From Terrimicrobiaceae bacterium (GTDB lineage Bacteria; Verrucomicrobiota; Verrucomicrobiia; Chthoniobacterales; Terrimicrobiaceae), in assembly GCA_044353785.1 (NCBI GenBank), contig JBILBH010000006.1, forward strand, positions 7,910-71,909: a DNA stretch of 64,000 nt, read 5' to 3'. The notes below the pieces were generated by a model. That model had not been told where the DNA came from and did not search any database. It saw only the letters and a list, made by a program, of their open reading frames with translations. This document shows positions 7,738 through 48,887 of the stretch, piece by piece. Position 1 is the stretch's first letter. Every line of letters starts with the position of its first letter. Made by a program: the position numbers and the translations under genes.

Positions 7738-10700
7738 ATGCGTAATCGATGGGTTGGCATTTTTATTCCCGTTATGGGAGTGCCGTTGCTGAACTGCTCT
7801 GCTTTGGCCGTTGTGCCCCAAGAAAAAGAGCGGGCCTCGTTGGTCATTGATTGCACAGCCCCTCAGGCGGTGGTCTCGGAGTCTGTCGATGTGGAAAACG
7901 GAAGGATCGAAACCGAGATGGGGGCCTTCCAAGAAAGCTTCCCCGTGAAGACCCTTCCCCGCAAAGGCAGCCAGATCCAACTCCGGGTGCCGTTTCGAGA
8001 CGGAACGAACTGTTTGATTCTGGAAATCCAGGAAATCCACAACCGCCGCCCGGAGGCTTTCGGCTATACCGTGCTCGTGAATGGAAAAGAGGTCTATTTC
8101 CGCACCTACCAAGAACTCGGCGCGGGGCCGAACCACTATTTTGTGGAGGTGCCCAAAGACTTTCTGAGAGGTCCGAGTCCGCTAGAGATCACGCTGCGGC
8201 ACGACGGGGGTGGGCCATTCAGCCTTGGCAAAATCTGGGTTCATGGAGACTTTTTTGAAAAGGTGGCCAAGCCCGAAAAGGTCTTTCGCCCCATGGCGAT
8301 TATTTTTCCAACCAGTTCGATCCGCCTGGAGGGCGAAAGCGAAACGAATCGCCTGCAAGGCGAGGGTGTCGAACTCCAGCGAATCCAAAAAATGCGGGCT
8401 GCATATTCCGGGCTTCAGGATTACGGACCGGTTGGTTTTTTGAACTTCGCCGGCGGCTACGGGCACATCGATCCGGAGGAAGGCAGAAAAGAGCTCCTCT
8501 CCCAAATTGACCTTTCCTCGGAGACCGGCATGCCGGGTCTCTGGATCGTCAATGGCACGGGATGGGGAGGCAAGCCCACGGGAACCGACGGGCGTGGGGG
8601 CTATTTCAGCGACATTCAATACACGCACACGATCTATGATTCCGCGCTTGGCACCTACCGCGCCTCATGGCCAAACATGTGGAGCAACACTCCCGGTGCC
8701 GCCCTTCGCAATCCGGTGATGAATGCTTTTTTGGAAAAACGCTTCCAGCAGCTCATGGAGGGCATTCAGGAGCAACTTGCCTGGCTTCGTCTCAAAGGAC
8801 AGCCCGCGCAGCCGATGATCGTGCGCGAATTTGCCCCCGCGAGCGGTGAGATTTCCCAAGCCGTCATCGAGTCGGCGGCGAGGGATGGTCTCACCCTTGA
8901 TCCCACCGATGGCATGAGCTCCGAGGAACGCCTCTGGATGCACCGGGATTCCGTTCGCACCTGGCAGGAATTTGCCGACAGCTCCCAGCGAAACATTGGC
9001 CGGGACATCGCGATTGTGGATCAAGGCAAGCTCCTCCTGCCCGAGGAGCAGTTTTTCCACAATCTTTACGCGCACCCGGATTTTCTTACCGACAAGCCCA
9101 TGAACGATCCGCGCTGGGGTGGTGGTCAGCATGGCATGGTCGATGGACTCTGGAGCAGCGGGGAAATGGGTGAGGGAGTGAACTTCCGCGATATCGCCAT
9201 GTATGACTACCTGCGCGCCCGTGGGAAGCTCTCGATGATCAATATGGAGCGCACAATCCTGAAACAGAATTTCAGTGTGATGAAGCGCCATTTCGAGCGA
9301 GGCTTTCAGTTTCTCTGCTTCTTCAATGCCGATCCCGGCGATGAGATATTTGTCCGCGAGGTGGATGGAATCGCCAACGATCCCATCGATCCTCCGGTGC
9401 ATCGCCAGCCCGCCCTGCTCGATGTGATCGTGCAGCGGGATTTCCATGCCGGACCGAAGGACAAACTTGTTTTTCAAAAAAACATGAAGGTTCACAGCAA
9501 GCTGCGCCTGGCTGTTGAGGATGTGTCCGAGCCTGGAGAGCTGATCTACAAGCTGACAAATTCCGGCGACGCTTTCACCGCACCGCTCGCCTTGGACCTC
9601 GATGGGCGCATCTCGCCAGGCGAGGCGAACAACATCGAGGTCCTCGTTGGCCCCTCCCTCGAGCGCTTGAAAAAAGTCGCCACGCTCACGGAGAAAAACC
9701 TGCCCGACCCGAACCATTGGACGCCGTGGATGACTTCCCGCAAGCTTCTCGATCTTGGTCCTTCGACCATTGGTCAAAAAATCGTTTATTTAAAGATCGT
9801 CTTCAACGCCATGCATGCCCCGGATGCGGCGTTTTTGCTCAGTCTCAATGTGCAATCCAGTTGGCTCCAACAGAGCGGCTACTTGGCCCAACCCTCGCTG
9901 AGCAAGAAGCAGCAACGCACTCTCCAGCTCTGGACGCAGGAACGCGCCATCGCCTCGAGCCTTTTGAAAAAATATTTTGCCACCGGCGGCGAGGATGAAG
10001 TCTATCGCCAAGCCAAGGATTTCTTTGAGCGCGGTTGGTATGCCAGCGCGAGGCGTCTCCTCGCATCGGAGATTTCGCAGGTGCTTCCTGCCACCTACTT
10101 GGTGCGGGGGCATGGTCGTCTGGGGCGCTATCCCATCGAGGTGAAGCTCGAACGTCCCGAGGATTGGGGATTTTTCACCATCGAAAAAATCGGATCCGAG
10201 GGCTGCATTTTCTGTATCAAGTCGGGTCAAGATAGCCAGCCTCTTTCCCTCACCATCGAAAACCTCGGAGCATCTGGGGAATGGGCGCTGCGCCCACTGG
10301 GGCAGGGACGCTACGCGATTTCCCCGGCTGCGAAAAACGGTCGCCGGGCGAAAGGTGGCCACTTGACTTTCGACATCGAGCATTCCAATCCCTCCAAGCT
10401 CGCTCCCAAACTCCCTTCCCGATTCGCGGCCCGGTTCCTTTCTGGAAACAAAAACCGCATCCATATGGATACACAGGATCTGGAGATCATGGACTATGCC
10501 TCGAGCATGAGCCTCCCGCTCGCAAAGGATCCCGTTTTCACCCGTTCGGCCGCCTGCATGGAGGGGGCAGAGGCGCCTGCCAAGGGCGAGATGCCTCAAC
10601 GCCATGACGAGGTCATTGTTAACACCAACGAGGCCGGCGAGGTCACGGCGGTGGAGGCCAGATATGGTTACGAAAAGGGACGGATCAAAAAATTTGAGCC

Positions 10701-11445
10701 ACCTGTGATCGTCGGGGAGCCCTCGAATGGCATCATCGAAATGGAAAGTGGGAACCGATATGAACTCCTGTTCGACAAGGCCGTGACGAAGTTCGACACG
10801 GTTGCCATCCAGGGAACCCTCACGGCCTACGAGATCACCGCCCTGAAGGATGCCATCAAGCCCGGACATGAAGTCGAGTTGCGATTCACCCCGTGCCAAT
10901 CGGAGCAATCCATTCCGCGTTTGCTGGAGGTCAGGCAGGCCCGCGAAATCCTGCTCGATGTCGATTATACAAAAGCTACTGACAGTTCTTGGAAAAACGC
11001 CACGGTTGGAATCCAGGATGCCGATGTGGTCGTTCACAAACCTGAGCCGAACTACCTGTATCGCGTTGAGATGCCGCTCCTCCGCCCACTCAAGCCCTTC
11101 CTGCCGGGGAGCGTGACCTATTTGATCCAAAACGAAAAACCCCTCGGCACCACGGTCGTGGAGATTGCCGCAAGGGCGTTTGACGATTCCAGTCACGTGA
11201 CGGTTTATACCAGCCCCGATGGCGTTGAGTGGATGCGCTGTGGCCAATTCGACAATACTTGGCAGAACAACATTTCACAAAATCTCGACGACCTGCCGTA
11301 TCAATTCATCGACATGACTCCCTCCGTTCAGGGCTTGAAAAATTTCTACCTGAAAATAGAAATGACAGCGAATCCGGCCGACCATCGCTTCTGTGTTGCA
11401 AAACTCCGGGTTGCCACGGAAAAATCCTCTAAGTCCCTTCCATGA
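7738..11445 (+). CDS. Secreted 1,235-aa protein of unknown family, paralog 1 (candidate carbohydrate-active enzyme)
   Basis: Hydrophobic N-terminal signal-like segment. Collinear with the ORFs at 15190-18822 and 21989-25621. Shared blocks include EIHNR, GAGPNH(Y/F)FVEV, DGRGGYFSD, LDPxDG(M/I)SxEE, SGE, N(M/I/L)ER, F(L/V)C(F/L)FNAxPGDE and PSNGIIE. I recognise no known catalytic signature. Confidence 0.8.
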   Translation: MRNRWVGIFIPVMGVPLLNCSALAVVPQEKERASLVIDCTAPQAVVSESVDVENGRIETEMGAFQESFPVKTLPRKGSQIQLRVPFRDGTNCLILEIQEIHNRRPEAFGYTVLVNGKEVYFRTYQELGAGPNHYFVEVPKDFLRGPSPLEITLRHDGGGPFSLGKIWVHGDFFEKVAKPEKVFRPMAIIFPTSSIRLEGESETNRLQGEGVELQRIQKMRAAYSGLQDYGPVGFLNFAGGYGHIDPEEGRKELLSQIDLSSETGMPGLWIVNGTGWGGKPTGTDGRGGYFSDIQYTHTIYDSALGTYRASWPNMWSNTPGAALRNPVMNAFLEKRFQQLMEGIQEQLAWLRLKGQPAQPMIVREFAPASGEISQAVIESAARDGLTLDPTDGMSSEERLWMHRDSVRTWQEFADSSQRNIGRDIAIVDQGKLLLPEEQFFHNLYAHPDFLTDKPMNDPRWGGGQHGMVDGLWSSGEMGEGVNFRDIAMYDYLRARGKLSMINMERTILKQNFSVMKRHFERGFQFLCFFNADPGDEIFVREVDGIANDPIDPPVHRQPALLDVIVQRDFHAGPKDKLVFQKNMKVHSKLRLAVEDVSEPGELIYKLTNSGDAFTAPLALDLDGRISPGEANNIEVLVGPSLERLKKVATLTEKNLPDPNHWTPWMTSRKLLDLGPSTIGQKIVYLKIVFNAMHAPDAAFLLSLNVQSSWLQQSGYLAQPSLSKKQQRTLQLWTQERAIASSLLKKYFATGGEDEVYRQAKDFFERGWYASARRLLASEISQVLPATYLVRGHGRLGRYPIEVKLERPEDWGFFTIEKIGSEGCIFCIKSGQDSQPLSLTIENLGASGEWALRPLGQGRYAISPAAKNGRRAKGGHLTFDIEHSNPSKLAPKLPSRFAARFLSGNKNRIHMDTQDLEIMDYASSMSLPLAKDPVFTRSAACMEGAEAPAKGEMPQRHDEVIVNTNEAGEVTAVEARYGYEKGRIKKFEPPVIVGEPSNGIIEMESGNRYELLFDKAVTKFDTVAIQGTLTAYEITALKDAIKPGHEVELRFTPCQSEQSIPRLLEVRQAREILLDVDYTKATDSSWKNATVGIQDADVVVHKPEPNYLYRVEMPLLRPLKPFLPGSVTYLIQNEKPLGTTVVEIAARAFDDSSHVTVYTSPDGVEWMRCGQFDNTWQNNISQNLDDLPYQFIDMTPSVQGLKNFYLKIEMTANPADHRFCVAKLRVATEKSSKSLP

Positions 11446-13064
11446 AAAAAATCCTCCTCCCAGTCCTCTTTGCTTTTTTGGCCGTCGTGCAAACCTTTGC
11501 AGAATCCAGGCGCCCCAATATTATTCTGTTCCTGGCCGATGACATGGGCATCGGGGATCTGGGCGCTTACGGAAGCACCGATGTCAGCACGCCGAACATC
11601 GACAAGCTCGCTGCCGGTGGGTTGAAATTCACCGATGCCCACTCGCCGGCGGCCGTCTGCCAACCCACTCGCTACGCGATCCTTTCGGGACGCTACTACG
11701 GCCGCTCGGCCTACGGGCGGATTCAATCGGGAATTTATTTCCGAAAAGATGAGATTCTCTTCCCGCAGCTTCTCCAAAAAGCAGGCTACAACACTGCTGC
11801 TTTTGGCAAATGGCACTTGGGCTTCGGCCTTACCAAACGTGGCGAGCCGACGGATTGGAATGGCGACCTAAAGCCAGGTCCGAACGAATGCGGATTCGAC
11901 TGGTTCTTCGGTATGCCGAACAGCCACGCCCAGCCGCCCTATGTTTTTGTTGAGAACAACCGCATCTACAAAGGCGACCCGAATGATCCCCTCGAGGTCA
12001 TTTCCAGCGAAGAGGCCAAGGCCCGCGGTGTGAAGCCGCCCGCCAATGCCCCTTCCGGTTGGGGGATGAGCGTCGGCGGCAAAGCGGCTCACGAGGCCTG
12101 CGACATGAACCGCCTTGATCTAATCATGGCGGAAAAAGCCTGCGAATTCATCGGCCGCCAGACTCCTGAAAAGCCGTTTTTTATCTACCTGCCATGGTTC
12201 GCTCCCCATGTGCCGTTGGCCGTAGCCAAGGAATTCAGTGGCAAGAGCCCGCTCGGAGCCCGCATCAAAAAGCAGAACAACAACGCGGTTCGCAATGCTG
12301 AGTATTGCAATCAACTCGACTTCGCCGTTGGTCAGGTCATGGCCTGCCTCAAGGAGAAGGGCCTTGCCGAAAATACGCTCGTCATTTTTACCAGCGACAA
12401 TGGAGGCGCTATTTCGGGAGACTCGGCTTCGGTGGGCTACAAAACCAACGGGGAATTTCTCGGAACCAAGACCGACACCTGGGAGGGCGGGCACCGGGTT
12501 CCCACGATCGCCTGGTGGCCTGGTAAAATCGCCGCCGGCAAGACGACCAACAAACTATTTTCCCTCACGGATCTCTACGACACCTTCTTGGCCGCGGCGG
12601 ATGTGCCTGTACCTCCAGGGGCGGCGGTGGACAGCGTCAATCTGCTGCCGCTTCTTCTCGACCCCGAAAATGCTCCCGGTCTTGATGGCATGTTTTACAA
12701 GGGTAAAGCCAGCGCCCTCCGTGTCGGCAACTGGTCTTATCATCCGCAGCAGGGCCCGGGCGGACTCTTTGGTACCGGTCCGATCGTTAAACTCGGCCAG
12801 ACGCACTCGGACTACGATGAGACTGGCAAAATCAAGCCCGACGCGCCCCATGAGCAGCTCTACAACCTCGGCACCGATCCGCAGCAGACTCAAAACCTTG
12901 TGAACACCGAACCCGAAGTCGCCGCTGTGATGAAGGACATCATGAAAAAATATGAAGAGGCAAACCGCAAAGACGAAGTGCCTCTGCAAGCGATCCTTGC
13001 CGATCTTTCCCCTGAAACAGCCAAAAAACTCCATGTCAACATTCTGCCAGCCAAAACCAAATGA
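11442..13064 (+). CDS. S1-family (formylglycine-dependent, Cys-type) sulfatase
   Basis: Signal peptide. LFLADDMGIGDLGAYG metal-binding block, the CQPTR formylglycine motif (C-x-P-x-R), and GKWHLG. The ATGA overlap with the upstream gene is at 11442-11445. Confidence 0.9.
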   Translation: MKKILLPVLFAFLAVVQTFAESRRPNIILFLADDMGIGDLGAYGSTDVSTPNIDKLAAGGLKFTDAHSPAAVCQPTRYAILSGRYYGRSAYGRIQSGIYFRKDEILFPQLLQKAGYNTAAFGKWHLGFGLTKRGEPTDWNGDLKPGPNECGFDWFFGMPNSHAQPPYVFVENNRIYKGDPNDPLEVISSEEAKARGVKPPANAPSGWGMSVGGKAAHEACDMNRLDLIMAEKACEFIGRQTPEKPFFIYLPWFAPHVPLAVAKEFSGKSPLGARIKKQNNNAVRNAEYCNQLDFAVGQVMACLKEKGLAENTLVIFTSDNGGAISGDSASVGYKTNGEFLGTKTDTWEGGHRVPTIAWWPGKIAAGKTTNKLFSLTDLYDTFLAAADVPVPPGAAVDSVNLLPLLLDPENAPGLDGMFYKGKASALRVGNWSYHPQQGPGGLFGTGPIVKLGQTHSDYDETGKIKPDAPHEQLYNLGTDPQQTQNLVNTEPEVAAVMKDIMKKYEEANRKDEVPLQAILADLSPETAKKLHVNILPAKTK

Positions 13065-15193
13065 ATCCTATTGCTGACGCCATTTCCGTCCTGGGCTCCC
13101 GCCACGGCCTGATCCTCGACCCCGTCGGGGGAAACGCCCGCATCATCCGCTTCGACATGTTCCACGAGGCCGCTGCGCTCGAAATCCGTGCGGGCTTGCG
13201 GATCGATGGGCAAGAATATGTTTTTCCGCTTTGTCGGGAGGGACAGCGTTTTGGTTTCTTCGATCAACGAATCACTCCCTGCACAAGCCGGTTGATCGGT
13301 ATCCACGAGGACTCGGGCATCAAGGTGGCACTCGAATTTGCCACGCCATTTCGTCCGAAGGATTCCGCGTTCTCAACCATTCCTGTCGTAGCCGCGCGGG
13401 TTTCTATTTCCAAAATCTCCGGAAACTTCCGCTGGCATCCGGTGAAGATGGCCCCCGAATCGGTGGAGTTGTTTTTCGAGGCTTCGAGCCGGGAGATGAC
13501 ATTCCAGGCGGTCGGTCCCGATGCGTTGGATATCACATTCAGCAGCCTGACCCTCCGCAGCTCGCATGAGAAGGCGTCGGATCCCGCCAACCGTCTGCTA
13601 CAGTTGGACCGCCTTGTAGCTCCCAGTGCGAAACGTGAAGGAAACCGCTTCTCGATCGAGGTGCCGAACAAGGAATTTGGCAAACGCACCTTGGATGTCT
13701 TCTGGTGCAGTCACAACGCGCCAGTGCTCGAGGTTTTTGGCAAGAAGCATCCCTTTCTGTATGCCTCGCGCTTCGCCTCGCTCGAGGCCGTCGCGGATTG
13801 GGCGAGGACGAACGGAGAGGAAATTTTCGCCAATGCCAAAAAGGTGGATGCCATTGTCGCTGCAAACAATCTGCCTCCCTCGATCAACAACCTCATGGCG
13901 CAAACGCTCCATTCGTGGCTCATGAACACCTGGTGGGTGGACCGCGATGGCAGGGATTGGTTCAGCGTTTGGGAAGGTAGTTGTGGATTCCATTCCACGG
14001 TGGATGTCGAGTTCACCCAGTCGCCGTTCTATCTGGCCGTCTGGCCCGAGCTTTTGGGCATCGAGCTGGATTACTGGCCCGAGTTTTCAAAGTCCGGCAC
14101 GCTGACCTTAGGCGATTGCGGAGAGGGGACGGAATTTCTCTCCCACGATTGTGGAGCCATGGCCCAAGCCAACGGGCAGGACTACCCGCACGAGATGGAG
14201 GTCGAGGAGACGACCAACTACCTCATCATGCTCTACGCACATTGGAGGCGGACCGGGGACTTCTCGATAGCCCGAAAGTGGGCGGCGACGGTGGTCAAAT
14301 ATTTGCGCTTTCTCGAGCGCTGCGACACGAAGGGCAAAGGCGTGCCCGATGTCGGCGTGGCGAACACCATTGATGATGGCGCCCCGGCGTTGCAATACGG
14401 CCGCGAGCAGGTCTATCTCGCGGTGAAGACGCTTGCCGCCTTCCAGTGCGGTGCCGCGATCCTCCAGGAGCTCGGCGATGCCGCGACCGCCAGCCATTTT
14501 CGGAACAAGGCTGACTTCATTCGCGGGCGTGTGGAGACCGAGGGATGGAAGGACGACCACTACATCTGCCTGCTTAACACCGATGGCAGGGGGCTTAAAA
14601 ACCCTTGGACCGGCAAGGATCTCGGTATGGAAATCGTTCCCGGCTGGGATGGCTTCCACATCTACACCGCAAATGGATTGGCTCCGCTGGACATGGTGGG
14701 CTTCTCGACCGGCCTTGATGAAACAAGACTCGTCAAAGACTTGATTAACGCCACAGAGGCCTGCCTCTGCGAATATGGCTGCTCGCATAGCGACTACGAG
14801 GCTGATGAATACGCGCTTGGCGGGCTGCAGGATGGAATGGCCGGCGTCTCCGCCAAGCCCGGCTGGATTTCGATGAACATGCTCCGCGACATTTCTGCCC
14901 TCTACAGGGGCCTCGATTTCCGGGATCTCTCCGAGCGCTATTGGAATTGGCAGGTCACAACCAATGCCCAAGCCCCAGCACTCTTCTTTGAAACCTTCGG
15001 GGGGAACAATCTTCATTTCTATCCTCGAGGTGTCGCGGTGTGGGGATTTTTTGATGCGCTGGCCGGCCTACGGATCGACCGTGTCGCTGGCCGGGACGAG
15101 ACACAACCCGTTGTTTCCCGGTTGAAAGTTCCCCGTCTCATCGACGCCGATTGGACGGCCGGCAAGGCTTCCACAATCAACTCGAACATATGA
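13061..15193 (+). CDS. Putative six-hairpin (alpha/alpha)6 glycoside hydrolase, GH52-like (distant)
   Basis: 710 aa with no signal peptide. The blocks WEGSCGFHSTVDVEFTQ, FLSHDCG, EETTNYLIMLYAHWRRTGD, GVPDVGVANTIDDG and a C-terminal FYPRGVAVWGF resemble, by eye, the order and spacing of conserved blocks I associate with ~705-aa GH52 beta-xylosidases. This is not verified by HMM. Confidence 0.4.
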   Translation: MNPIADAISVLGSRHGLILDPVGGNARIIRFDMFHEAAALEIRAGLRIDGQEYVFPLCREGQRFGFFDQRITPCTSRLIGIHEDSGIKVALEFATPFRPKDSAFSTIPVVAARVSISKISGNFRWHPVKMAPESVELFFEASSREMTFQAVGPDALDITFSSLTLRSSHEKASDPANRLLQLDRLVAPSAKREGNRFSIEVPNKEFGKRTLDVFWCSHNAPVLEVFGKKHPFLYASRFASLEAVADWARTNGEEIFANAKKVDAIVAANNLPPSINNLMAQTLHSWLMNTWWVDRDGRDWFSVWEGSCGFHSTVDVEFTQSPFYLAVWPELLGIELDYWPEFSKSGTLTLGDCGEGTEFLSHDCGAMAQANGQDYPHEMEVEETTNYLIMLYAHWRRTGDFSIARKWAATVVKYLRFLERCDTKGKGVPDVGVANTIDDGAPALQYGREQVYLAVKTLAAFQCGAAILQELGDAATASHFRNKADFIRGRVETEGWKDDHYICLLNTDGRGLKNPWTGKDLGMEIVPGWDGFHIYTANGLAPLDMVGFSTGLDETRLVKDLINATEACLCEYGCSHSDYEADEYALGGLQDGMAGVSAKPGWISMNMLRDISALYRGLDFRDLSERYWNWQVTTNAQAPALFFETFGGNNLHFYPRGVAVWGFFDALAGLRIDRVAGRDETQPVVSRLKVPRLIDADWTAGKASTINSNI

Positions 15194-18822: not shown

Positions 18823-20453
18823 AAAAACCACTCCTACTCGCGCTCGCAACAACCCTTGCCGCTCTACCGCTCCATGCCGTCGAGATGTGCTGGATTTTTG
18901 GAAACAACATGGTCCTCCAAGCCGACCGACCCCTTCCAATCTGGGGTCAGGGCAAACCCGGCGAGGAAGTGGGCGTCGCTTTTGCTGGCCAGGAGAAAAA
19001 AACCACGGCGGATTCCGATGGTGAATGGCGTGTGGTGTTTGATGCTTTGCCTGCGAATCCGAAAGGGCAGACGATGAAGGTTTCTGCATCCTCGGGGGGA
19101 AGAGAATTTAAGGATGTGCTCCTTGGCGATGTATGGTTGGCCTCCGGCCAATCAAATATGGCCCAACCCAGTGCCGACAAATCAGAGGGAGGCGACAAAT
19201 TGGCATCCGAGCCTTCAAACACTCTGTTTCGTGTCTTTCCCGTGGCTTACAACGAGTGGGCTCCGGAGCCGAATAACAAGCAGTTTGGATGGGATAAAAA
19301 AGTCACCAATTGGTTCGAGTGGATTCCTGCCCACCCTGGCGTATCAGGCGTTCCATATTGGTTTGGCTCCAACCTCCAAAAGGAAACCGGCCGCCCAATC
19401 GGCGTCATCATTTCCCCAGTGGGCGCTTCGCATGCTGAGTGCTGGATCTCCATGAAAGATCTCGAGGCCGATCCCTATTTCAAGGATGTCGTAGAGAACT
19501 CGAAGAAGCGCATCACGAATGCCCAAGCGGAGCGCGAAAAATTCAAGGCGGAAGTGGCCTCATGGGAAGAACGCAAGAAAGCCGCCCAGAATGCCGGGCA
19601 GCCGTTCAATGAACGCCAGCCGAACGATCAGCGTGATGAGTTGGCCGTGCGATGGTGGGTTGGTGCCCTATATAACGCCCGTATCGCTCCGTTGCGTGAT
19701 CTCTCGATCAAGGGCGTGATCTGGTATCAGGGCGAAAACAACGCGGGAAAAAGAGGCGTCAACGCTTACACCACCGAGTCCTACGACAGGTTAATGAAAA
19801 ATATCATCGCATCGTGGAGGAAACAATTCGGCCAGACCGATCTGCCTTTCCATACCGTTCAGTTATCTTTTTTTAACTGGAATGATGGCAATGGACGGAC
19901 GCCACGCGATCCGAACAAGCCAGGAGGTTGGCCGATCATTCGCGAAGCACAGGAAAAAACGGCCAAGGACACGCCGAACTCGGAGATGGTAGTCTCGTGG
20001 GATATTGGAGAGAAGGCCGACATCCACCCAAAAAACAAGCGCCCCGTCGGTGAGCGCCTTGCCAAGGTTGCTTTACGAGACACCTACGGTCAAAAGGCAG
20101 TGATTGCCGACAGCCCCTCATATGCCTCGCACAAGGTCGAGGATGGCAAAATCCGCGTTTCCTTTACAAACACTCATGGTGGACTCAAGACCAAGGGCGA
20201 CAAAGTGCTCGGTTTCGCTATCGCTGGAGCGGACGACAAATTCGTCTGGGCCGATGCGGCGATCGAGGGCAAAGACAGCGTCTTGGTCTCGAGCCCGCAG
20301 GTTCCCCAACCGAAAAATGTGCGTTTCGGCTACATCCAGTTTCAGGACTCGGATCTTTACAATTTGGTCGATTTTCCGGCAGTGCCGTTCCGCACGGACA
20401 CATTGCCTCTTGAACAAAACAAAGGCTCTGAACCCGCTTCGCCTCAATCCTAA
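18819..20453 (+). CDS. SASA-domain (sialate O-acetylesterase-like) carbohydrate esterase
   Basis: The ATG at 18819 overlaps the upstream stop (ATGA) and gives the signal peptide MKKPLLLALATTLAALPLHA. It carries the GQSNM catalytic-serine block (VWLASGQSNMAQP) and a later WYQGENN block typical of the SASA/DUF303 esterase family. Confidence 0.8.
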   Translation: MKKPLLLALATTLAALPLHAVEMCWIFGNNMVLQADRPLPIWGQGKPGEEVGVAFAGQEKKTTADSDGEWRVVFDALPANPKGQTMKVSASSGGREFKDVLLGDVWLASGQSNMAQPSADKSEGGDKLASEPSNTLFRVFPVAYNEWAPEPNNKQFGWDKKVTNWFEWIPAHPGVSGVPYWFGSNLQKETGRPIGVIISPVGASHAECWISMKDLEADPYFKDVVENSKKRITNAQAEREKFKAEVASWEERKKAAQNAGQPFNERQPNDQRDELAVRWWVGALYNARIAPLRDLSIKGVIWYQGENNAGKRGVNAYTTESYDRLMKNIIASWRKQFGQTDLPFHTVQLSFFNWNDGNGRTPRDPNKPGGWPIIREAQEKTAKDTPNSEMVVSWDIGEKADIHPKNKRPVGERLAKVALRDTYGQKAVIADSPSYASHKVEDGKIRVSFTNTHGGLKTKGDKVLGFAIAGADDKFVWADAAIEGKDSVLVSSPQVPQPKNVRFGYIQFQDSDLYNLVDFPAVPFRTDTLPLEQNKGSEPASPQS

Positions 20454-20462
20454 TCCCTTTGT

Positions 20463-21965
20463 ATGTTTAAAAAAATCCACCTCCTTCTCGCGACTGCACT
20501 CGCGCTTCCAATTGCCGCCAAAGCAGCACCGGCAGGCCCCAAGCAGCCTGTCAAAAAAACCAACATCATCCTGATGTTGGCCGACGATCTCGGATTCGGC
20601 GATGTGAGTTGCTACGGAGCCAAGCTGATCAAGACGCCAAACATCGACAAACTCGCCGCCGAGGGCGTGAAGTTCACCGACGCCCATGCGCCGGCCGCAG
20701 TCTGCCAGCCCACACGCTATGGCATTCTTGCCGGGCGCTACCATTGGCGTGCAAAACGCACCGAACCGGCCCTTTACTTCGCCGAAAATGAAATCCTCTT
20801 GCCGCAGACCCTCAAGGACAACGGCTACAACACAGCCGCCTTTGGAAAATGGCACCTCGGCTGGGGTTCTGGGCAACCGAATGATGATGCCTTTTGGAAC
20901 GGCGAAATCACTCCCGGCCCGCTGAACACCGGCTTCGACTCCTACTTCGGAGTTCCTCACTCCCACTCGCAGCCGCCATTCGTGTTCATCGAAAACACAC
21001 GCATCTACAAAGGCGATCCCAATGATCCGCTGCGCCTGAACAAGGAACAGCCTTCCCACTGGAAGCATACGATGAATTCCGGTGGCAGCGAGGGAGCCAA
21101 GGCGGCTCATCAAGCGTGCAACATGGATCGACTCGACCTCACACTTGCTGAGCGCGCATCGGACTTCATTGCCCAGCAGACGAAAGACAAGCCGTTCTTC
21201 CTCTACCTTCCGTTCTACGCGCCGCATGTTCCGATCCTGCCCGCAAAGGAATTTCAGGGCACCAGTCAAGCCGATGCTCTGGGGGACTATGTCCAACAAC
21301 TCGACCACGCCGTGGGATTGGTCATGGAGGCTCTCAAGAAACACGGATTCGATGAAAACACGCTCGTCGTCTTCACCAGCGATAATGGTGGCTGCCATAT
21401 CGTGGAGAGCATGGCGATCGGTCACAACAGCAGTGGGCCTTGGTTGGGGCTCAAAACCGATGTCTGGGAGGGCGGCCATCGTGTTCCCTTCATAGCCCGC
21501 TGGCCCGGCAAAATTCCCGCCGACACGACTTGCGACAAGCTTCTCTCGTTAACGGATCTTTTCCCGACCTTCGCAGCGGCTTCCGGAATCCTCCTTCCGA
21601 GAAACGCCGCACCGGATGGTCTGAACATGCTGCCTCTTCTGGAGAGCCCTGCGGGCACTCCGGCGATTCGCACCGAGATGGTTTACTCCGGCCGTGGCCG
21701 CGGATTCCGTAGCGGCGACTGGGTTTACATCCCCGGCAAGGGCTCCGGCGGCCTTTTTGGCACATTCTACTTCGAGAAATTCGGCTACTCGAATTCCGAT
21801 CACGATGCTCAGGGCAAGCTCCTCGAGACAGCCCAGCCCGAGCAGCTCTACAACCTCAAGGAGGATCCCCGCCAAGCGATGAATGTCGCGGACAAATATC
21901 CCGAAGTGACCCGCCAGATGTCTTCCCGCTTCGCGGAAATCTCCCGTCAGGCCAAATCCCGCTGA
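20463..21965 (+). CDS. S1-family (Cys-type) sulfatase, paralog of 11442-13064
   Basis: Signal peptide. LMLADDLGFGDVSCYG, the CQPTR motif and GKWHLG. It aligns with the first sulfatase over its whole length, for example QPP(Y/F)VF(V/I)EN.RIYKGDPNDPL. Confidence 0.9.
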   Translation: MFKKIHLLLATALALPIAAKAAPAGPKQPVKKTNIILMLADDLGFGDVSCYGAKLIKTPNIDKLAAEGVKFTDAHAPAAVCQPTRYGILAGRYHWRAKRTEPALYFAENEILLPQTLKDNGYNTAAFGKWHLGWGSGQPNDDAFWNGEITPGPLNTGFDSYFGVPHSHSQPPFVFIENTRIYKGDPNDPLRLNKEQPSHWKHTMNSGGSEGAKAAHQACNMDRLDLTLAERASDFIAQQTKDKPFFLYLPFYAPHVPILPAKEFQGTSQADALGDYVQQLDHAVGLVMEALKKHGFDENTLVVFTSDNGGCHIVESMAIGHNSSGPWLGLKTDVWEGGHRVPFIARWPGKIPADTTCDKLLSLTDLFPTFAAASGILLPRNAAPDGLNMLPLLESPAGTPAIRTEMVYSGRGRGFRSGDWVYIPGKGSGGLFGTFYFEKFGYSNSDHDAQGKLLETAQPEQLYNLKEDPRQAMNVADKYPEVTRQMSSRFAEISRQAKSR

Positions 21966-21988
21966 GTCAAATCCTCCGAGTTCCAATC

Positions 21989-24900
21989 ATGATCAAAATA
22001 CGCCGCCCTGCATTGATGGCAGCCACACTGCTTGCCGCATTCGCTTCCCGAACCCATGCCTCTGTGGGTGTGGTGTCCCTTGGTGACAAGAACCTCCAGA
22101 TCCAATCCACGCCCTCCGTGGTTGTTGAACATCTCGATACCAAAATGGGAACCCTCCAAGGCTCCCATTTGGTTCGCACCATTCCCCACAAGGGCGATGA
22201 ACTCACCTTCGATATTTCTTTTGATGCTGGAGCGAAATCGCTGATTCTGGAGTTTCAGGAGATTCACAATCGCCGTCCGGCTGCTTACGGATACACGGTT
22301 TTGATCAATGGCCGGGAGGTTTACTTCCGCACTTACCAGGAACTCGGCGCAGGCCCGAATCACTTCTTTGTCGAGGTGCCGGAGGATCTGCTGAAAAGCG
22401 GGTCTCCGCTCAAGGTCACGCTGCGCCACGAGGGTGGAGGAGCCTTCAGCGTCGCCAAAGTTTGGGCGTGGGAAGACTTTTTTGAAACAACTGCAAAAGC
22501 CGAGCACGTCTTCAAACCCATGGGCCTTCTCCTTCCGCCCAATGCCATCAAAATCGACGGCAAACCGGTGAAACCTAAAACCGATGAGGAGTGGGCGGCG
22601 TTGTTCGAGGAGCAAAAAAAACGATTCTCCGACCTGAAGGATTATTCACCTGTCGGCACTCTGGCCTTCGGAGGTTCCTACGGCGGGCGTGATCCGAAGG
22701 AGGGTAATAAATCGCTTATCCAAGGCATCCGTCTCTCGGGACTCACCGGAATGCCGGGCGAGATGATGCTCAATGGGCTCGGCTGGTTTTCCGGCCCCAC
22801 CGGCCCGGATGGCCTCGGCGGCTACTTCAGCGACATCCGCTACCAGAAGACCAGCTTCAATCGCGAAAAAGGTGCTTGGCAGGCCTCGTTTCCAAATATT
22901 TGGGGTAATACGCCCGCCTACACCCTGCGCGATCCGAATATGAACGCGTTTCTCGAAAAACGCTTCCAGCAAATGATGGCTGGCGCTCCTGAGGAGCTGG
23001 CTCGTCTGCGTCTGGCCGGAAAACCGTCCCAACCGATCCTCATCCGTGAGTTTGCCCCCGCCAGCGGGGAGATCACCGACGAGATCGTGAAGGCCGCTGC
23101 GAAAGATGGCGTGAAACTCGATCCCATCGACGGCATGAGCTTCGAGGAGCGTATGTGGATGCATGGAGACACCCTTCGCACTTGGCAGGAATACGCCGAC
23201 AGCCTCCGCAAAGCCATGGGACGCGACATCGCCGTTGTGGATCGCGGTCAGCTTCTCCTCACTGACGAGCAGAGTTTTGACAATTTCTATGCTCATCCGA
23301 ACTTCATGACCGACGATCCCGCTGGCGACGAACGCTACGGCGGCGGCCAGCACGGTATGGTTGATGGACTCTGGAGCAGCGGCGAGATTGGTGCCACAAG
23401 CGGACACCAGGACATCGGAGCCAATACCAAGTTCCGCGATGTCGCGATGTATGACTACCTGCCTGCCAACGGCAAATTTGCAGCCATCAACCTTGAGCGC
23501 ACCATGCTGAAAGAGAACTTCGAGGTGCTGCGACTCTACTACGAGCGGGGCTCGCAATTCCTCTGCCTCTTTAATGCCGATGATGGCGACGAGAAGTTTG
23601 TGCGTAGCGTGGATGGCATCGAGAACGATCCCGCATCCCCTCCGTCCCACGCCCAGCCTGTGGTGACGATGGAAAAAATCGCCCCCCAAAAATCCAAGGG
23701 TAAAACTCCCTTCCACCGCGAAGCCCTCTACCGCCTGAGCAGTGCGGGTGATCCTTTCCCAAGTGGTCTCACTCTCGATTTGGACGGCCGCATCTCGCCT
23801 GGAGAGGTCAACAAAATCGAGGTCTTCCTCGGGGATTCGCCGAAAGATATGAAGCTGGTCGCGACGTTGACCGAAAAAGAGCTTCCCGATCCCGACCACT
23901 GGACACCCCAAATGACCAGCCAGTATTCGATGGAACTCGGTGATTCCATGATCGGCAAAAACGAGACCTACTTGAAATTCGTTTTTCATGCCGAGGGAGC
24001 GGAGGACGCCGCGTTCCTGATTTCCCAGAATGTGAAAACCCGCTGGCCGAAACAGAGTGGCTATCTCGGCAAAACCAACCTGACCCGCAAGGATGCCCGA
24101 ACGCTTCAGCTTTGGCTGCAGGAACGCAGCGTTTGCGAGCGACTGCTCCGCTACTACCACGAAGCGGGTGGCGAGGATGCGAGCTGGAAAGAGGCGAAAG
24201 CCCTCTACGACGAAGGCCTCTACGCCAGCGCGCGCCGACTTCTCGGTCCTGCTATCTCGGAGGTGCTTCCTGCCCGCTACTTGGTTCGCGGCCATGGGAA
24301 CCTTGGCCGTCATCCCGTCGAAGTGCGTCTTCCTGCTGAGAACGATTCGATTTTTGTAACCCTGGAAAAAATCGCTCCCGATGGGGCGGCGTTTTCTCTT
24401 CGATCAGAGACCGACTACGCCAAGGTTGATCTCGTTTTTGACACCCTCGATCCGAAAAAATCCTGGCGTCTCGAATCCCCAACGCCCGCAACCTATCGCT
24501 TGGTAGTGGGGCAGGATGCCGATAAGCGCGTGGCCGTGAAGGAGGGCAAGGTCAGAGTCACTCTTGATCACGCCAACCCGCCAACTGCCAAACCCAAACT
24601 GCCCGCAAAGCTGGTGGCGCGTTTCCTCGGGCAGCGTGGCAATACCATCACGGTCGATCTCCAAGATCTGGAACTGATGGATTACGGTAGCAACATGAGC
24701 CTCCCCATCGTGAAAAATGCACCCCACACGCGCGAAGCCGATGGGCTCGACAATCCCACGCTGGCGTCAGCGAAAAGTCCTCAGCCACACGATCAAGTCA
24801 CCCTTGATATCAACGAGCAAGGCGAGGTGATTGCGATTCACTCCCGATACGGATATGACAAGGGTCGACTCAAAAAATTTCACCCGCCTGTCGTAATCGG

Positions 24901-25621
24901 TGGGGCCTCAAATGGCGCAATCGAGTTGGAGAATGGCAAAAAATACGAACTCGTCTTCGAAAAAGGTAGCGCTGCTGGAAACTTCGAGACCGTAGCCCTG
25001 CAGGGCGGCATCATTTCCAACGAACTCCAAAGCCTCGCCAGCGCCTTCAAGCCCGGCGATGAGTTTGAGATTTTCTACTCGCCCTATGCGGAAAAGAAGG
25101 GCCTGCCACGCATCATCACCGTCAAGCAACCCCGGAAGATGCTTCTTGATGTGGATTACACCAAGGATACCGAGTGGAAAGACAGTACTCACAGCGTGAC
25201 GGGGGTGGATGTGAAGCCCCACCGGCCGGAGCCGAACTACCTCTACAAAATCGAAATCCCGATGATGCGGCCGGTGAAGGCGTTTGAGACGGGAAGCGTG
25301 GTTTACCACATCACCAACGAAAAACCGCTTGGCACGACCGCCGTGGAATTTGCCGCACGAGCCTTCGATGCCTCGAGTCGAGTGACCTTCTACACAAGCC
25401 CGGACGGTCAGAAATGGACGCGTGTCGGCCAGTTCGACAAGACCTGGCAAAATAGCATTCCCCAAAACCTCGGGGCGCTTCCCTACCAATTCCTTGACCT
25501 CACTCCGCAGGTGAAAGGATTGAAATCGTTTTACCTGAAAGCCGAGTTGGCCATGAATAGCGCGGACCACCGTTACTGCCTGGCCAAACTGCGTGTGGCC
25601 ACAGCAGACTCTGAAGAGTAA
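21989..25621 (+). CDS. Secreted 1,210-aa protein of unknown family, paralog 3 (close to paralog 1)
   Basis: Signal peptide MIKIRRPALMAATLLAAFASRTHA. Long stretches are near-identical to paralog 1, for example LILEFQEIHNRRPAAYGYTVLINGREVYFRTYQELGAGPNHFFVEVP and YGGGQHGMVDGLWSSGE. Confidence 0.8.
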   Translation: MIKIRRPALMAATLLAAFASRTHASVGVVSLGDKNLQIQSTPSVVVEHLDTKMGTLQGSHLVRTIPHKGDELTFDISFDAGAKSLILEFQEIHNRRPAAYGYTVLINGREVYFRTYQELGAGPNHFFVEVPEDLLKSGSPLKVTLRHEGGGAFSVAKVWAWEDFFETTAKAEHVFKPMGLLLPPNAIKIDGKPVKPKTDEEWAALFEEQKKRFSDLKDYSPVGTLAFGGSYGGRDPKEGNKSLIQGIRLSGLTGMPGEMMLNGLGWFSGPTGPDGLGGYFSDIRYQKTSFNREKGAWQASFPNIWGNTPAYTLRDPNMNAFLEKRFQQMMAGAPEELARLRLAGKPSQPILIREFAPASGEITDEIVKAAAKDGVKLDPIDGMSFEERMWMHGDTLRTWQEYADSLRKAMGRDIAVVDRGQLLLTDEQSFDNFYAHPNFMTDDPAGDERYGGGQHGMVDGLWSSGEIGATSGHQDIGANTKFRDVAMYDYLPANGKFAAINLERTMLKENFEVLRLYYERGSQFLCLFNADDGDEKFVRSVDGIENDPASPPSHAQPVVTMEKIAPQKSKGKTPFHREALYRLSSAGDPFPSGLTLDLDGRISPGEVNKIEVFLGDSPKDMKLVATLTEKELPDPDHWTPQMTSQYSMELGDSMIGKNETYLKFVFHAEGAEDAAFLISQNVKTRWPKQSGYLGKTNLTRKDARTLQLWLQERSVCERLLRYYHEAGGEDASWKEAKALYDEGLYASARRLLGPAISEVLPARYLVRGHGNLGRHPVEVRLPAENDSIFVTLEKIAPDGAAFSLRSETDYAKVDLVFDTLDPKKSWRLESPTPATYRLVVGQDADKRVAVKEGKVRVTLDHANPPTAKPKLPAKLVARFLGQRGNTITVDLQDLELMDYGSNMSLPIVKNAPHTREADGLDNPTLASAKSPQPHDQVTLDINEQGEVIAIHSRYGYDKGRLKKFHPPVVIGGASNGAIELENGKKYELVFEKGSAAGNFETVALQGGIISNELQSLASAFKPGDEFEIFYSPYAEKKGLPRIITVKQPRKMLLDVDYTKDTEWKDSTHSVTGVDVKPHRPEPNYLYKIEIPMMRPVKAFETGSVVYHITNEKPLGTTAVEFAARAFDASSRVTFYTSPDGQKWTRVGQFDKTWQNSIPQNLGALPYQFLDLTPQVKGLKSFYLKAELAMNSADHRYCLAKLRVATADSEE

Positions 25622-32610: not shown

Positions 32611-32621
32611 TTTTTGATGGA

Positions 32622-33224: not shown

Positions 33225-33339
33225 ACGGGGCGGGATAGTGCGAGATGCTGCTTTTCTTGGCAATGGAGATTCCACCCCATGCAGGCGGGCTTTTGCGTTT
33301 GATTTTTCGGTGGTCGTGGAGAATGATGAGCACTGATCA

Positions 33340-44539: not shown

Positions 44540-44544
44540 GGGGG

Positions 44545-45411: not shown

Positions 45412-45454
45412 GGGTGGTGGATGGTTGTTTTGTTTTTCTTAGAATGGTGAAGAG

Positions 45455-46249: not shown

Positions 46250-46251
46250 GT

Positions 46252-46533
46252 TTAGGCGGCCGGTTGGGCAGGCGTCTCAGGAGTGCTCTCCTGTGGGGGG
46301 GGGGCTTCGGCTTCGGCGGTTTTTTTTATATCGCGGAGGCGGGCTTTCTCCGCCACGACTTGCTTGGCGCAGTATTCGATAACCAATCGGAAGACTCTGA
46401 AGAGTAGCGCAGTCAGAACGCAGCCGATGGTCGCATTGAACACGGTGTCTTCGAGGGTCTTGCCAGCGACAAAGCTCACCAGAAAGGCGAGAACGAAGCC
46501 AGTGAAGCCTCCGATGAGCGTGAAATATTGCAT
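46252..46533 (-). CDS. Small two-TM membrane protein immediately upstream of fliA, function unknown
   Basis: I prefer the ATG at 46533 (MQYFTLIGGFTGFVLAFLVSFVAG...). The TTG at 46575 in the ORF track lies within the candidate promoter. The stop is 2 nt before the fliA start. The tail is acidic and Pro-rich. Confidence 0.5.
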   Translation of the reverse strand: MQYFTLIGGFTGFVLAFLVSFVAGKTLEDTVFNATIGCVLTALLFRVFRLVIEYCAKQVVAEKARLRDIKKTAEAEAPPPQESTPETPAQPAA

Positions 46534-46571
46534 GTGGGCTGGTGGGTTTCTAAAAAATCCCTTCGTTCGCA

Positions 46572-48875: not shown

Positions 48876-48887
48876 GTGGCGGACGGA

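Follow-up and report, generated by a model that had tools for sequence, protein, structure and literature searches.

Glycosidases of clan GH-A, the 4/7 superfamily that includes GH35 (8fa4, 4d1i), GH42 (1kwg) and GH26 (2whk), are built on a (β/α)8 barrel with a canonical Asn-Glu on strand 4. Larger enzymes, such as GH66 (cycloisomaltooligosaccharide glucanotransferase/dextranase) and GH101 (endo-α-N-acetylgalactosaminidase), have an N-terminal β-sandwich, a TIM barrel and C-terminal β-sandwiches, in that order, and the catalytic pair of GH66 lies on strands 4 and 6. At the level of whole loci, Gram-positive systems for xanthan and N-glycans bring together three components: a depolymerase at the cell surface, an ABC transporter and a cytoplasmic GH38, the last being the intracellular α-mannosidase in xanthan loci. 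Here we analyzed a window of 64,000 nucleotides from a freshwater Terrimicrobiaceae-like organism, in which three genes encoding large paralogous proteins (P1, P2 and P3) lie among genes for carbohydrate-active proteins.

Three paralogs in one operon

The genes concerned are as follows.

656..3559, + strand: GH38 α-mannosidase with four GH38 Pfam domains; no signal peptide
3556..4539, + strand: HAD-superfamily hydrolase (Pfam HAD_2/Hydrolase), overlapping the GH38 stop by 4 bp
4655..5626, + strand: LacI-family regulator (Pfam LacI)
5767..7734, + strand: sodium:solute symporter (Pfam SSF), 3 bp upstream of P1
7738..11445, + strand: P1, 1235 aa, the member modeled by AlphaFold2
11442..13064, + strand: first S1 sulfatase (Pfam Sulfatase); signal-like N-terminus, exported
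13061..15193, + strand: (α/α)6 six-hairpin protein (Pfam GtaA_6_Hairpin, partial GH52); no signal peptide
15190..18822, + strand: P2, 1210 aa, of a deep-branching clade
18819..20453, + strand: SASA-type carbohydrate O-acetylesterase (Pfam SASA); signal-like N-terminus, exported
20463..21965, + strand: second S1 sulfatase (Pfam Sulfatase); signal-like N-terminus, exported
21989..25621, + strand: P3, 1210 aa, of the clade sister to that of P1
25625..27313, + strand: GH43 + NPCBM protein (Pfam); no signal peptide; last gene of the operon

BLASTP of all three pairs showed that P1, P2 and P3 are full-length collinear paralogs, with similarity far above chance: P1 and P3 were 53% identical over 1205 columns (E = 0), while P2 was 30% identical both to P1 (E = 5e-165) and to P3 (E = 1e-161). 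The three collinear reading frames and the greater divergence of P2 had been described in the initial annotation, which also took P1 and P3 to be very similar products of a recent duplication. The latter view does not stand, since the two are only 53% identical and, in a neighbor-joining tree, fall into separate clades, each with orthologs from several genomes; their duplication is thus old. In the same tree, P2 clustered with the members P0104 and P0107. The mechanical reading frame of P2 begins at TTG 15151; the gene call on public contigs of identical sequence starts at the ATG at 15190, which leaves a 4-bp overlap with the stop of the preceding gene. A protein identical to P3 is carried by JGI and Logan contigs. 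The motifs listed earlier were found in all three translations with small deviations, namely GSGPNH in place of GAGPNH in P2 and, in P3, DGLGGYFSD, DGDE for PGDE, and ASNGAIELENGKKYEL.

The genes of the operon (5767-27313) all lie on the same strand, either overlapping by 4 bp or separated by at most 23 bp. The operon is followed by trmD on the opposite strand, and the paralogs occupy about 51% of it, in agreement with the earlier estimate of half. Pfam confirmed the neighbors that had been named, i.e., two sulfatases, the SASA esterase, the GtaA six-hairpin protein with a partial GH52 and the GH43+NPCBM protein. The carbohydrate-active character of the operon likewise held, with three exported-type paralogs beside two sulfatases and an acetylesterase. 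Signal-like N-termini were seen on P1-P3 (Sec-type in appearance, the translations being judged by eye), both sulfatases and the esterase, and none on the GH38, HAD, six-hairpin and GH43 proteins. In searches of PDB sequences, the first sulfatase was closest to S1_15 (Gal/GalNAc-6-O-sulfatase type), matching 9bau ("S1_15B"; E = 4e-69) and the N-acetylgalactosamine-6-O-sulfatase 6s20. The esterase matched 9h4u, 9ega and 7kmm (E = 2e-81 to 4e-65), the GH43+NPCBM protein the exo-β-1,3-galactanases 3vsf, 7bys and 5flw (E = 2e-49 to 1e-28), and the GH38 protein 3lvt/5kbp (E = 1e-106) and Streptococcus pyogenes 2wyh; the HAD and six-hairpin proteins had no match.

Predicted fold and candidate active site

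AlphaFold2 gave confident models of P1 residues 37-1235 (pLDDT 92, pTM 0.91) and of the barrel (pLDDT 89.5, pTM 0.88), in which an N-terminal β-sandwich, a (β/α)8 barrel, further β and helical domains and a discoidin-like C-terminus follow in this order.

7738..7809, + strand: signal-like peptide of P1, residues 1-24, MRNRWVGIFIPVMGVPLLNCSALA, by eye from the translation
7846..8253, + strand: N-terminal β-sandwich module, residues ~37-172, all-β in the model
8293..9432, + strand: central (β/α)8 TIM-barrel module, residues ~186-565, alternating strand and helix in the models
9466..10935, + strand: accessory domains, from the secondary structure of the model, high pLDDT
10942..11421, + strand: C-terminal β-sandwich, from the model and weak profile matches

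The accessory region, for which a Pfam search found no match, is modeled as a β-sandwich (577-707), a three-helix bundle (723-781) and two β domains (785-1066). The C-terminal module is probably discoidin (F5/8 type C)/CBM32-like: it had weak profile matches to the "putative chitobiase" domains 2kd7/3ggl (E = 0.7-0.8), and the member P0213 aligns to profile positions 1061-1187 where Pfam calls F5_F8_type_C. This module is absent from many Firmicute and other short members, and members of 1039-1108 aa lack it.

When the barrel was compared with the PDB by Foldseek, the top 27 among the matches listed were glycoside hydrolases of GH35, GH26 and GH42 (probability 0.98-1.0, TM up to 0.51). The isolated barrel matched GH35 8fa4 with E = 7e-4 and TM 0.42-0.48 and GH42 1kwg with TM 0.51, and GH26 2whk was also among its matches; xylose isomerase-like and sugar epimerase barrels were close behind, at E of about 0.02-0.03. 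Matches to the whole protein were mainly multidomain TIM-barrel glycosidases of GH66, GH101, GH96, GH10 and GH26. These models and nearest folds (TM 0.4-0.5) support the glycosidase-type barrel proposed in the initial annotation, while the comparison yielded no confident match to an established family; at ~10% identity and E of about 1e-3, the predicted likeness to clan GH-A is weak and at the level of fold only.

Conservation was assessed in a 77-sequence alignment and in a wider set of 246 sequences from several phyla. The best-conserved polar residues were D284, D292, Y295, E476, N502 and E504, together with E99, H101, Y110 and R122 of the N-terminal module. In the wider set, D284 was retained in 230/231 sequences, D292 and Y295 each in 228/233, E476 in 224/231, N502 in 230/231, E504 in 217/231 and E/D364 in 213/230. 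The near-invariant carboxylates among them, and N502, lie at barrel strand ends or in loops: the secondary structure of the model puts E364 at the end of strand 4, E476 at that of strand 6 and E504 at that of strand 7, with D284 and D292 in the strand 3 loop. An insertion of ~85 residues after strand 3 carries the motif DGxGG[YF]FxD. All candidate catalytic residues are present in each of P1, P2 and P3. Of the acidic residues that had been called invariant, E364 is E or D in 92% of the 77 sequences and E504 is E in 88%; PGDE fails as a signature, with D535 in 79% and E536 in 49%. In 9/77 members, position 504 holds Tyr, Phe, Thr or Trp, and six have Cys, Ser or Gly at position 364, in a stretch of locally uncertain alignment. 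Positions 364 and 504 covary, with Asp at position 364 in 7/9 sequences without E504, compared with 5/68 others (Fisher p = 1e-5, phylogeny ignored).

Conservation within the family peaks in the N-terminal module, whose residues 87-136 form the highest-scoring 50-residue block (mean 0.74). Its conserved residues are E96, E99, H101, R103, Y110, R122, Y124, N132 and H133, with E99 in 223/223 and R122 in 223/226 of the wider set; the block comprising E99, H101, Y110 and R122 had not been stressed before. When conservation on the two faces of the barrel was crudely compared, it was not in excess on the catalytic one. We suggest that the conserved barrel carboxylates may perform acid/base catalysis. 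The most GH-A-like assignment would pair E364, at the strand 4 end, with E504 (N502-x-E504), at the strand 7 end. In that case D284, D292 and E476, which are invariant, would bind substrate; alternatively, they may themselves be the catalytic residues.

Distribution and proposed function of the family

Neither Pfam nor NCBIfam gave a significant match to P1, P2 or P3, nor did PDB sequences, also when searched with the 77-sequence profile, and in distant relatives Pfam found no domain over the family core. Source names were "hypothetical" or "SLH domain-containing" throughout, also for cultured Paenibacillus and Cohnella members in RefSeq/UniRef, and no mention of members' accession numbers was found in the searchable literature. 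The earlier statement that no family is recognizable thus stands: as judged by Pfam, NCBIfam and PDB sequences, the paralogs are members of a small, unannotated family, which, given the predicted fold, may plausibly be a new family of enzymes that degrade polysaccharides.

This family comprises 337 clusters among 1.84 billion representatives, with hosts in Verrucomicrobiota, Kiritimatiellia, Planctomycetota and Paenibacillaceae/Clostridia; Firmicute members bear SLH cell-wall anchors. About 22 independent loci hold at least two members, and the gene order P3-type, sulfatase, P2-type, SASA, sulfatase is found again in a distant lineage. Sulfatases were found in 26/69 loci. They are frequent in the loci of PVC bacteria, whereas the Firmicute loci examined, including the six from cultured Paenibacillaceae, had no sulfatase match. 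A sulfated, acetylated substrate, as initially proposed, may fit the present locus, but sulfation is not a built-in feature of the family. The partner common to Verrucomicrobiota and Paenibacillaceae is GH38, found within 10 kb of members in 13/69 loci. These include 6/6 from cultured Paenibacillaceae, and in the four of these six whose spacing was read it directly adjoins the member. The GH38-HAD pair is conserved in L003-L006, L057 and L069, and the six-hairpin protein recurs in L028, L065 and L066. Other neighbors are SASA or GDSL esterases, GH88, GH78, GH67, GH127 and GH63-like proteins and rhaM. No obvious endo-acting enzyme besides the family member was seen in the loci examined, and the locus of Cohnella fermenti holds an ABC transporter, GH38 and the family member, nothing more.

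We consider it reasonably probable (about 0.6) that P1, P2 and P3 are exported multidomain carbohydrate-active proteins with a glycoside-hydrolase-type (β/α)8 core, acting as depolymerases of a mannose-containing heteroglycan. The core would be flanked by the highly conserved N-terminal β-sandwich, accessory β domains and the terminal discoidin/CBM32-like module. Working outside the cytoplasm together with the two exported sulfatases and the exported O-acetylesterase, the three non-redundant paralogs may cut different glycosidic bonds in a single complex heteroglycan. The adjacent symporter probably imports the breakdown products, whose degradation would be completed by the GH38, GH43, six-hairpin and HAD proteins, and the LacI repressor probably regulates the locus. 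Judging from the neighboring genes, the substrate probably contains α-mannose and here may also be sulfated and acetylated, as in an algal or cyanobacterial exopolysaccharide.

Alternatively, the barrel might carry out other polymer chemistry, as a metal-dependent isomerase- or epimerase-type enzyme, lyase, transglycosylase or esterase, which we regard as unlikely. Xylose isomerase-like and D-allulose-3-epimerase barrels were matched at TM 0.35-0.40, E/D364, D428, H446 and E476/E504 could in principle hold a metal, and the best whole-protein match, GH66 CITase, is a transglycosylase. However, Gln replaces H446 in about one-quarter of members, D428 is conserved in only 82%, and the top 27 among the barrel matches listed were glycoside hydrolases. 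Export, SLH anchoring and discoidin-like modules suit depolymerases, as do loci with no other obvious endo-acting enzyme, and known PL folds make a lyase role less likely on a TIM barrel.

It is slightly less likely again that the paralogs are ordinary members, of known activity, of an existing CAZy family that has neither a Pfam/NCBIfam model nor a close solved structure, e.g., one of GH150-GH195 or a PL family. Several recent CAZy families have no Pfam model, which would favor this reading, but the sequence and profile searches, the uninformative names of cultured members and the literature search all speak against it, and Foldseek against the PDB to April 2026 gave a generic GH-A barrel at best. 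According to PMC13063451, CAZy numbering had reached GH195 or beyond by 2026. The recent families that emerged from the literature search differ from ours in the accessible parts of their published descriptions, where GH191 comprises GH114 homologs, GH192-194 are β-1,2-glucanases and GH195 is related to GH99.

Least likely is a non-catalytic role, in which surface proteins built on a degenerate barrel would bind glycans or serve as a scaffold, capturing polysaccharide for the sulfatases and esterase: several carbohydrate-binding-like β domains, the discoidin-like C-terminus, the loss of E504 or E364 in some members, the negative barrel-face comparison and a conservation peak outside the barrel are in its favor, but non-enzymatic TIM barrels are rare, it is difficult to account for the near-invariance of D284, D292, E476, N502 and E504 in 246 sequences from several phyla if the barrel has no catalytic role, and in the Cohnella fermenti locus an extracellular depolymerase would otherwise be missing.

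Comparison with known systems

Like clan GH-A enzymes, the family has a (β/α)8 barrel (Foldseek probability 0.99-1.0 and TM 0.42-0.51 for the isolated barrel), carboxylates at the ends of strands 4 (E/D364) and 7 (E504), and a multidomain build with β-sandwich accessory domains. It differs in that neither its sequences nor its profile matched a GH-A family of Pfam, in carrying Arg-Glu rather than Asn-Glu on strand 4, in the insertion after strand 3, and in that D284, D292 and E476 (strand 6) are strictly invariant whereas E364 and E504 are not. GH66 (3wnk, 5x7g, 5axg) and GH101 (5a55, 3ecq) were the best whole-protein matches (E = 1e-9 to 1e-5) and share the order of domains, and a strand 4/6 catalytic pair as in GH66 would fit E/D364 with E476; however, global TM is only 0.12-0.2, sequence similarity is absent, and neither family appeared in the top 50 Foldseek matches of the isolated barrel. 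In the 1575-aa member P0105, a GHL6 domain (Pfam PF14871, "hypothetical glycosyl hydrolase 6") is fused N-terminally to a complete family body, which suggests a glycan-degrading role in common. GHL6 is present there in addition to the family barrel and is distinct from it: hhalign found no similarity between the family profile and the GHL6 segment, and P1, P2 and P3 had no PF14871 match.

The closest parallel at the level of loci is with the Gram-positive xanthan and N-glycan systems. In Paenibacillus agaridevorans and Cohnella, the neighbors of an SLH-anchored member are an ABC transporter and GH38, sometimes joined by GH63-like and GH78 proteins, and an ABC transporter stood beside the member and GH38 in the Paenibacillaceae loci where this was examined. 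The arrangement would thus be that of a surface depolymerase, a transporter and a cytoplasmic GH38, but the slot of the depolymerase would be filled by this unclassified family instead of GH5, GH9, PL8, GH18 or GH85.

Three paralogues in one operon

P1, P2 and P3, the three paralogous secreted proteins of the window, are collinear from end to end in pairwise BLASTP, with 53% identity between P1 and P3 (E = 0) and 30% identity for both P1/P2 (E = 5e-165) and P2/P3 (E = 1e-161). The initial annotation had described three full-length collinear paralogous ORFs, and their coordinates as well as their collinearity were reproduced; the motifs it quoted are present in the P1-P3 translations, with small deviations from the form given.

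Open reading frames of the three paralogues
7738-11445, plus strand: P1, 1235 aa
15151/15190-18822, plus strand: P2, 1210 aa counted from the ATG
21989-25621, plus strand: P3, 1210 aa

Read by eye, each N terminus consists of a basic n-region, a hydrophobic core and an A-x-A-like site, and within the operon such signal-like peptides occur only on P1-P3, both sulfatases and the SASA esterase. The sulfatases, the esterase, the six-hairpin protein and the GH43 protein are the neighbours first listed.

Genes around P1-P3
Two S1 sulfatases
SASA acetylesterase
Six-hairpin protein (GtaA_6_Hairpin and partial GH52 matches)
GH43+NPCBM protein
5' of P1, same strand: Na+/solute symporter, LacI regulator, HAD hydrolase, GH38 alpha-mannosidase

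Between the symporter (5767) and GH43 (27313), adjacent genes either share 4 bp or lie no more than 23 bp apart, and the next gene past GH43, trmD, lies on the opposite strand. This stretch is one operon. P1-P3 make up about half of it, as had been noted, which means that half of its coding capacity is devoted to a family without a name in any database. The gene order 'P3-type, sulfatase, P2-type, SASA, sulfatase' was found again in a divergent lineage; together with the tree, this shows that P1-P3 are old and non-redundant, and the tree rejected the recent P1/P3 duplication that had been proposed.

At window 656-4539, the genes for GH38 and the 327-aa HAD hydrolase overlap by 4 bp; in several lineages (loci L003-L006, L057 and L069) this conserved pair stands 5' of a transporter gene and a member of the family. 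The HAD protein, for which we found no sequence relative in the PDB, might be a sugar phosphatase. Elsewhere in the window, a flagellar cluster occupies ~44000-63000 on the minus strand (FlhA, FlhB, FliM, FliK-like, FliI ATPase, FliF); GC skew is strongly positive from ~40 kb on and near zero across the glycan operon region; and two ORFs, 41304-43424 (minus strand, 706 aa) and 39576-40841 (plus strand, 421 aa), matched no Pfam family at E <= 1e-5. At 30799-33275 on the minus strand, a DUF2760 gene comes after an HSP70-like gene (603 aa); a similar HSP70-like gene stands beside a DnaJ/TPR gene downstream of the Cohnella fermenti member (locus L039, 14678-17779), probably by coincidence.

A family outside the named domains

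Membership in a Pfam or NCBIfam family was called when a score exceeded the curated gathering threshold of the family HMM, and P1-P3 passed no glycoside hydrolase, lyase or esterase HMM of Pfam-A or NCBIfam. P1 matched nothing in Pfam at E <= 1, P2 and P3 had sub-threshold, chance-level Pfam matches only (NHase_beta_C, BT_MCC_alpha, DUF7104), and nothing significant emerged from NCBIfam or, by phmmer and profile hmmsearch, from PDB sequences. The absence of a recognisable family, claimed initially, was thus borne out in all three resources. The NHase_beta_C match in P2 (window 18250-18500, residues ~1024-1104; 18.5 bits against a cutoff of 27.7) concerns the SH3-like barrel domain at the C terminus of nitrile hydratase beta; it covers the small beta domain around PSNGIIE...GNRYEL and is likely a resemblance of fold only.

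A word-indexed search of 5.8 billion clusters returned 114 relatives of P1, named 'hypothetical protein' where the source gave a name, and an exhaustive profile search of 1.84 billion representatives returned 337 clusters at E <= 1e-3. A further word-indexed search, seeded by an 870-aa relative, likewise yielded 'hypothetical' proteins only, and none of 14 divergent or longer relatives from the 337 clusters had a Pfam domain over the core. The single Pfam domain among the 114 relatives is the putative glycosidase domain GHL6 (PF14871), fused N-terminally to a whole family body in the metagenomic homologue P0105 (1575 aa). GHL6 was considered as the family's own barrel and rejected, being an added domain unrelated to it by hhalign.

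Identical P3 sequences occur on JGI and Logan metagenome contigs in the same gene order, and among genome bins, Terrimicrobiaceae MAGs from Lake Mendota come nearest (93% and 82% identity). Members are found in further Verrucomicrobiota (Terrimicrobiaceae, Chthoniobacterales, Rariglobus), in Kiritimatiellia, Planctomycetota and Victivallis, and among Firmicutes in four Cohnella genomes, Paenibacillus agaridevorans, Paenibacillus sp. 598K and Clostridia MAGs; remoter relatives of ~830-900 aa occur in Armatimonadota and Bacteroidota. Cultured members bear just the RefSeq/UniRef name 'S-layer homology domain-containing protein'. Their accession numbers appeared in no searchable paper, and literature searches by accession number, recent GH family number and Terrimicrobiaceae sulfatase work found nothing on the family.

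Barrel fold and conserved residues

We modelled P1 residues 37-1235 by AlphaFold2 from the 77-sequence family alignment (mean pLDDT 92, pTM 0.91).

Domains of P1 in the AlphaFold2 model
37-172: beta-sandwich
186-565: alternating strand/helix domain
577-707: beta-sandwich
723-781: three-helix bundle
785-1066: two beta domains
1069-1228: C-terminal beta-sandwich

The C-terminal module, absent in many shorter members, is probably discoidin/CBM32-like: the family profile weakly matched 'putative chitobiase' domains (E = 0.7-0.8), and the homologue P0213 aligned to profile positions 1061-1187 with a region assigned to F5_F8_type_C by Pfam; P1-P3 themselves had no direct Pfam match to F5/8 type C (PF00754).

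When the whole protein was searched against the PDB with Foldseek, it matched mostly multidomain TIM-barrel glycosidases (GH66, GH101, GH96, GH10, GH26), many at E < 1e-5, yet at a global TM of just 0.1-0.2. A homologous whole architecture was rejected on this low TM, which reflects shared beta-sandwich and barrel pieces, and the barrel was therefore re-modelled alone (pLDDT 89.5). Both models contain eight strand/helix repeats forming a (beta/alpha)8 barrel, and the barrel alone best matched GH35, GH26 and GH42 (probability 0.99-1.0, TM 0.42-0.51, E ~1e-3, identity ~10%). As modelled, the core is a (beta/alpha)8 barrel closest to clan GH-A, and the earlier view of the central module as a glycosidase-type barrel is upheld by these confident models and matches.

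That the barrel performs other chemistry, as an epimerase, lyase or transglycosylase, is unlikely: TIM-barrel sugar epimerases and xylose isomerases do appear among the barrel matches listed, at E = 0.02-0.03, below a top 27 made up of glycoside hydrolases. It is unlikely that P1-P3 belong to an existing CAZy family that neither Pfam nor the PDB represents. The modelled core stands as far from clan GH-A as separate families typically do.

Among the polar residues of the barrel, D284, D292, Y295, E476, Y491 and N502 (P1 numbering) are invariant across the 77-sequence alignment; Glu occupies position 504 in 88% of sequences, and at position 364 Glu accounts for 77% and Asp for 16% (59 and 12 of 77). 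The PGDE motif, initially listed among the invariant acidic residues, is not conserved family-wide in this alignment and was rejected as a catalytic motif. The core of the initial interpretation was supported, and its details on PGDE and on the age of the P1/P3 duplication were corrected.

Conservation of barrel residues in the wider set of 246 sequences
D284: 230/231
D292: 228/233
Y295: 228/233
E476: 224/231
N502: 230/231
E504: 217/231
E/D364: 213/230

In the models, E364 is predicted to end strand 4, E476 to follow strand 6 and N502-x-E504 to end strand 7, with D284 and D292 in the long loop following strand 3. Carboxylates on strands 4 and 7 are the clan GH-A arrangement, and a strand 4/strand 6 pair is known from GH66- or GH31-type enzymes; an alternative candidate pair, E/D364 with the invariant E476, would fit the latter pattern. 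Of the 9 sequences without E504, 7 have Asp at position 364, against 5 of the remaining 68 (Fisher p = 1e-5, with no correction for phylogeny), a covariation that hints at functional coupling. Sequences without E504, mostly with D364, may form a subclade with altered or lost catalysis; P0105, with Tyr at 504 and Asp at 364, is one such sequence.

Over the full length of the protein, conservation peaks in the N-terminal beta-sandwich (residues 87-136, mean column conservation 0.74), where E99, Y110 and R122 are nearly invariant (223-226 sequences). This conservation suggests that the N-terminal module helps to form the active site or to bind substrate. All candidate residues are kept in P1, P2 and P3. 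A crude comparison showed no excess conservation on the barrel's catalytic face (0.49 at C-terminal against 0.53 at N-terminal strand ends). That P1-P3 are non-catalytic binding or scaffold proteins is unlikely.

Neighbourhoods and proposed role

We compared the window's operon proteins with 69 fetched loci around family members by tblastn, many of the contigs being short.

Loci with a match to each operon partner
Sulfatase: 26/69
SASA: 14/69
GH38: 13/69
Six-hairpin protein: 9/69
GH43+NPCBM: 7/69

Across these loci, GH38 is the sole partner common to both phyla. It lies within 10 kb of a member in all six cultured Paenibacillaceae loci, none of which gave a sulfatase match by tblastn with window proteins, and directly adjoins the member in the four where spacing was read, with ABC-transporter genes there too. 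The cultured Paenibacillus and Cohnella strains have a minimal locus of ABC transporter, GH38 and one member; the Cohnella fermenti locus contains these alone, which leaves the member as its only candidate extracellular depolymerase. Firmicute members carry SLH domains and are thus expected to be surface-anchored. A GH38-HAD-transporter-member core was seen in Terrimicrobiaceae and one other lineage, and two to four members share a locus in ~22 independent cases. Other recurring neighbours are GH78, GH88, GH67, GH127, GH63/MGH1-like proteins, rhaM and GDSL esterases. A FA_desaturase + Rieske + NAD_binding_1 fusion of ~760-790 aa (L065 2508-4796, L066 2418-4796, L069 17195-19474) accompanies members on two or three contigs, where AraC regulators and GDSL esterases are also close by; this protein may oxygenate a modified (e.g., O-methylated) sugar.

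The operon enzymes are nearest to S1_15 Gal/GalNAc-6-O-sulfatases (first sulfatase), SASA-type carbohydrate acetylesterases, exo-beta-1,3-galactanases (GH43), and the Enterococcus and Streptococcus pyogenes enzymes (GH38). In the mechanism that we propose, and hold to be probable if not strongly so, the exported P1-P3, presumably endo-acting, would each cleave a different linkage in a complex heteroglycan that contains mannose and, in this organism, would be sulfated and acetylated. The sulfatases and the SASA esterase would strip the decorations, the symporter would take up the fragments, and GH38, GH43, the six-hairpin protein and the HAD hydrolase, all without signal peptides, would finish degradation under LacI control.

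A more far-reaching reading, to which we assign a probability of about 0.45, is that the family is a new glycoside hydrolase family outside CAZy whose members may act as keystone extracellular depolymerases of alpha-mannose-containing exopolysaccharides. The substrate would be sulfated and acetylated, plausibly cyanobacterial or algal, in freshwater PVC bacteria and unsulfated in soil Paenibacillaceae, and the active site may be joint between the non-canonical TIM barrel (D284, D292, E476, N502-x-E504) and the N-terminal beta-sandwich (E99, H101, R122). To our knowledge, the backbone-cutting enzymes for freshwater sulfated glycans are largely unidentified. Freshwater Verrucomicrobiota have been proposed as major, sulfatase-rich polysaccharide degraders (PMC5615132). 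If P1-P3 are glycosidases, they would represent a new CAZyme family of ~340 sequence clusters in PVC bacteria, Armatimonadota and Firmicutes, account for 'hypothetical' genes between sulfatases in many metagenome-assembled genomes, and provide a genetic marker for an unidentified mannose-containing glycan.

Two known enzymes were set aside. GH195, a sulfated-mannan endo-mannanase, is GH99-related according to its own paper and hence unrelated to the family; alpha-agarase (GH96), prompted by the P. agaridevorans host and the match 9m0b, reached a TM of 0.1-0.17 with no sequence match.

GH66 gave E = 1e-9 in the whole-protein search but a TM of 0.12-0.2 and no sequence match to the family, and GH66/clan GH-D-like families are absent from the best 50 barrel-only matches. 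Clan GH-A has an Asn-Glu signature on strand 4; in the family an Arg precedes E364, and neither candidate Glu is strictly invariant: position 364 is Cys, Ser or Gly in six members, and 9 of 77 have Tyr, Phe, Thr or Trp at position 504. As a polysaccharide-utilisation operon that encodes multidomain secreted TIM-barrel carbohydrate-active enzymes, the system is of a familiar type; none of the resources queried (Pfam, NCBIfam, PDB, RefSeq/UniRef names, literature) recognises the family itself, which is distinguished by its non-canonical conserved residues, highly conserved N-terminal module, multi-paralogue habit and cross-phylum link to GH38.
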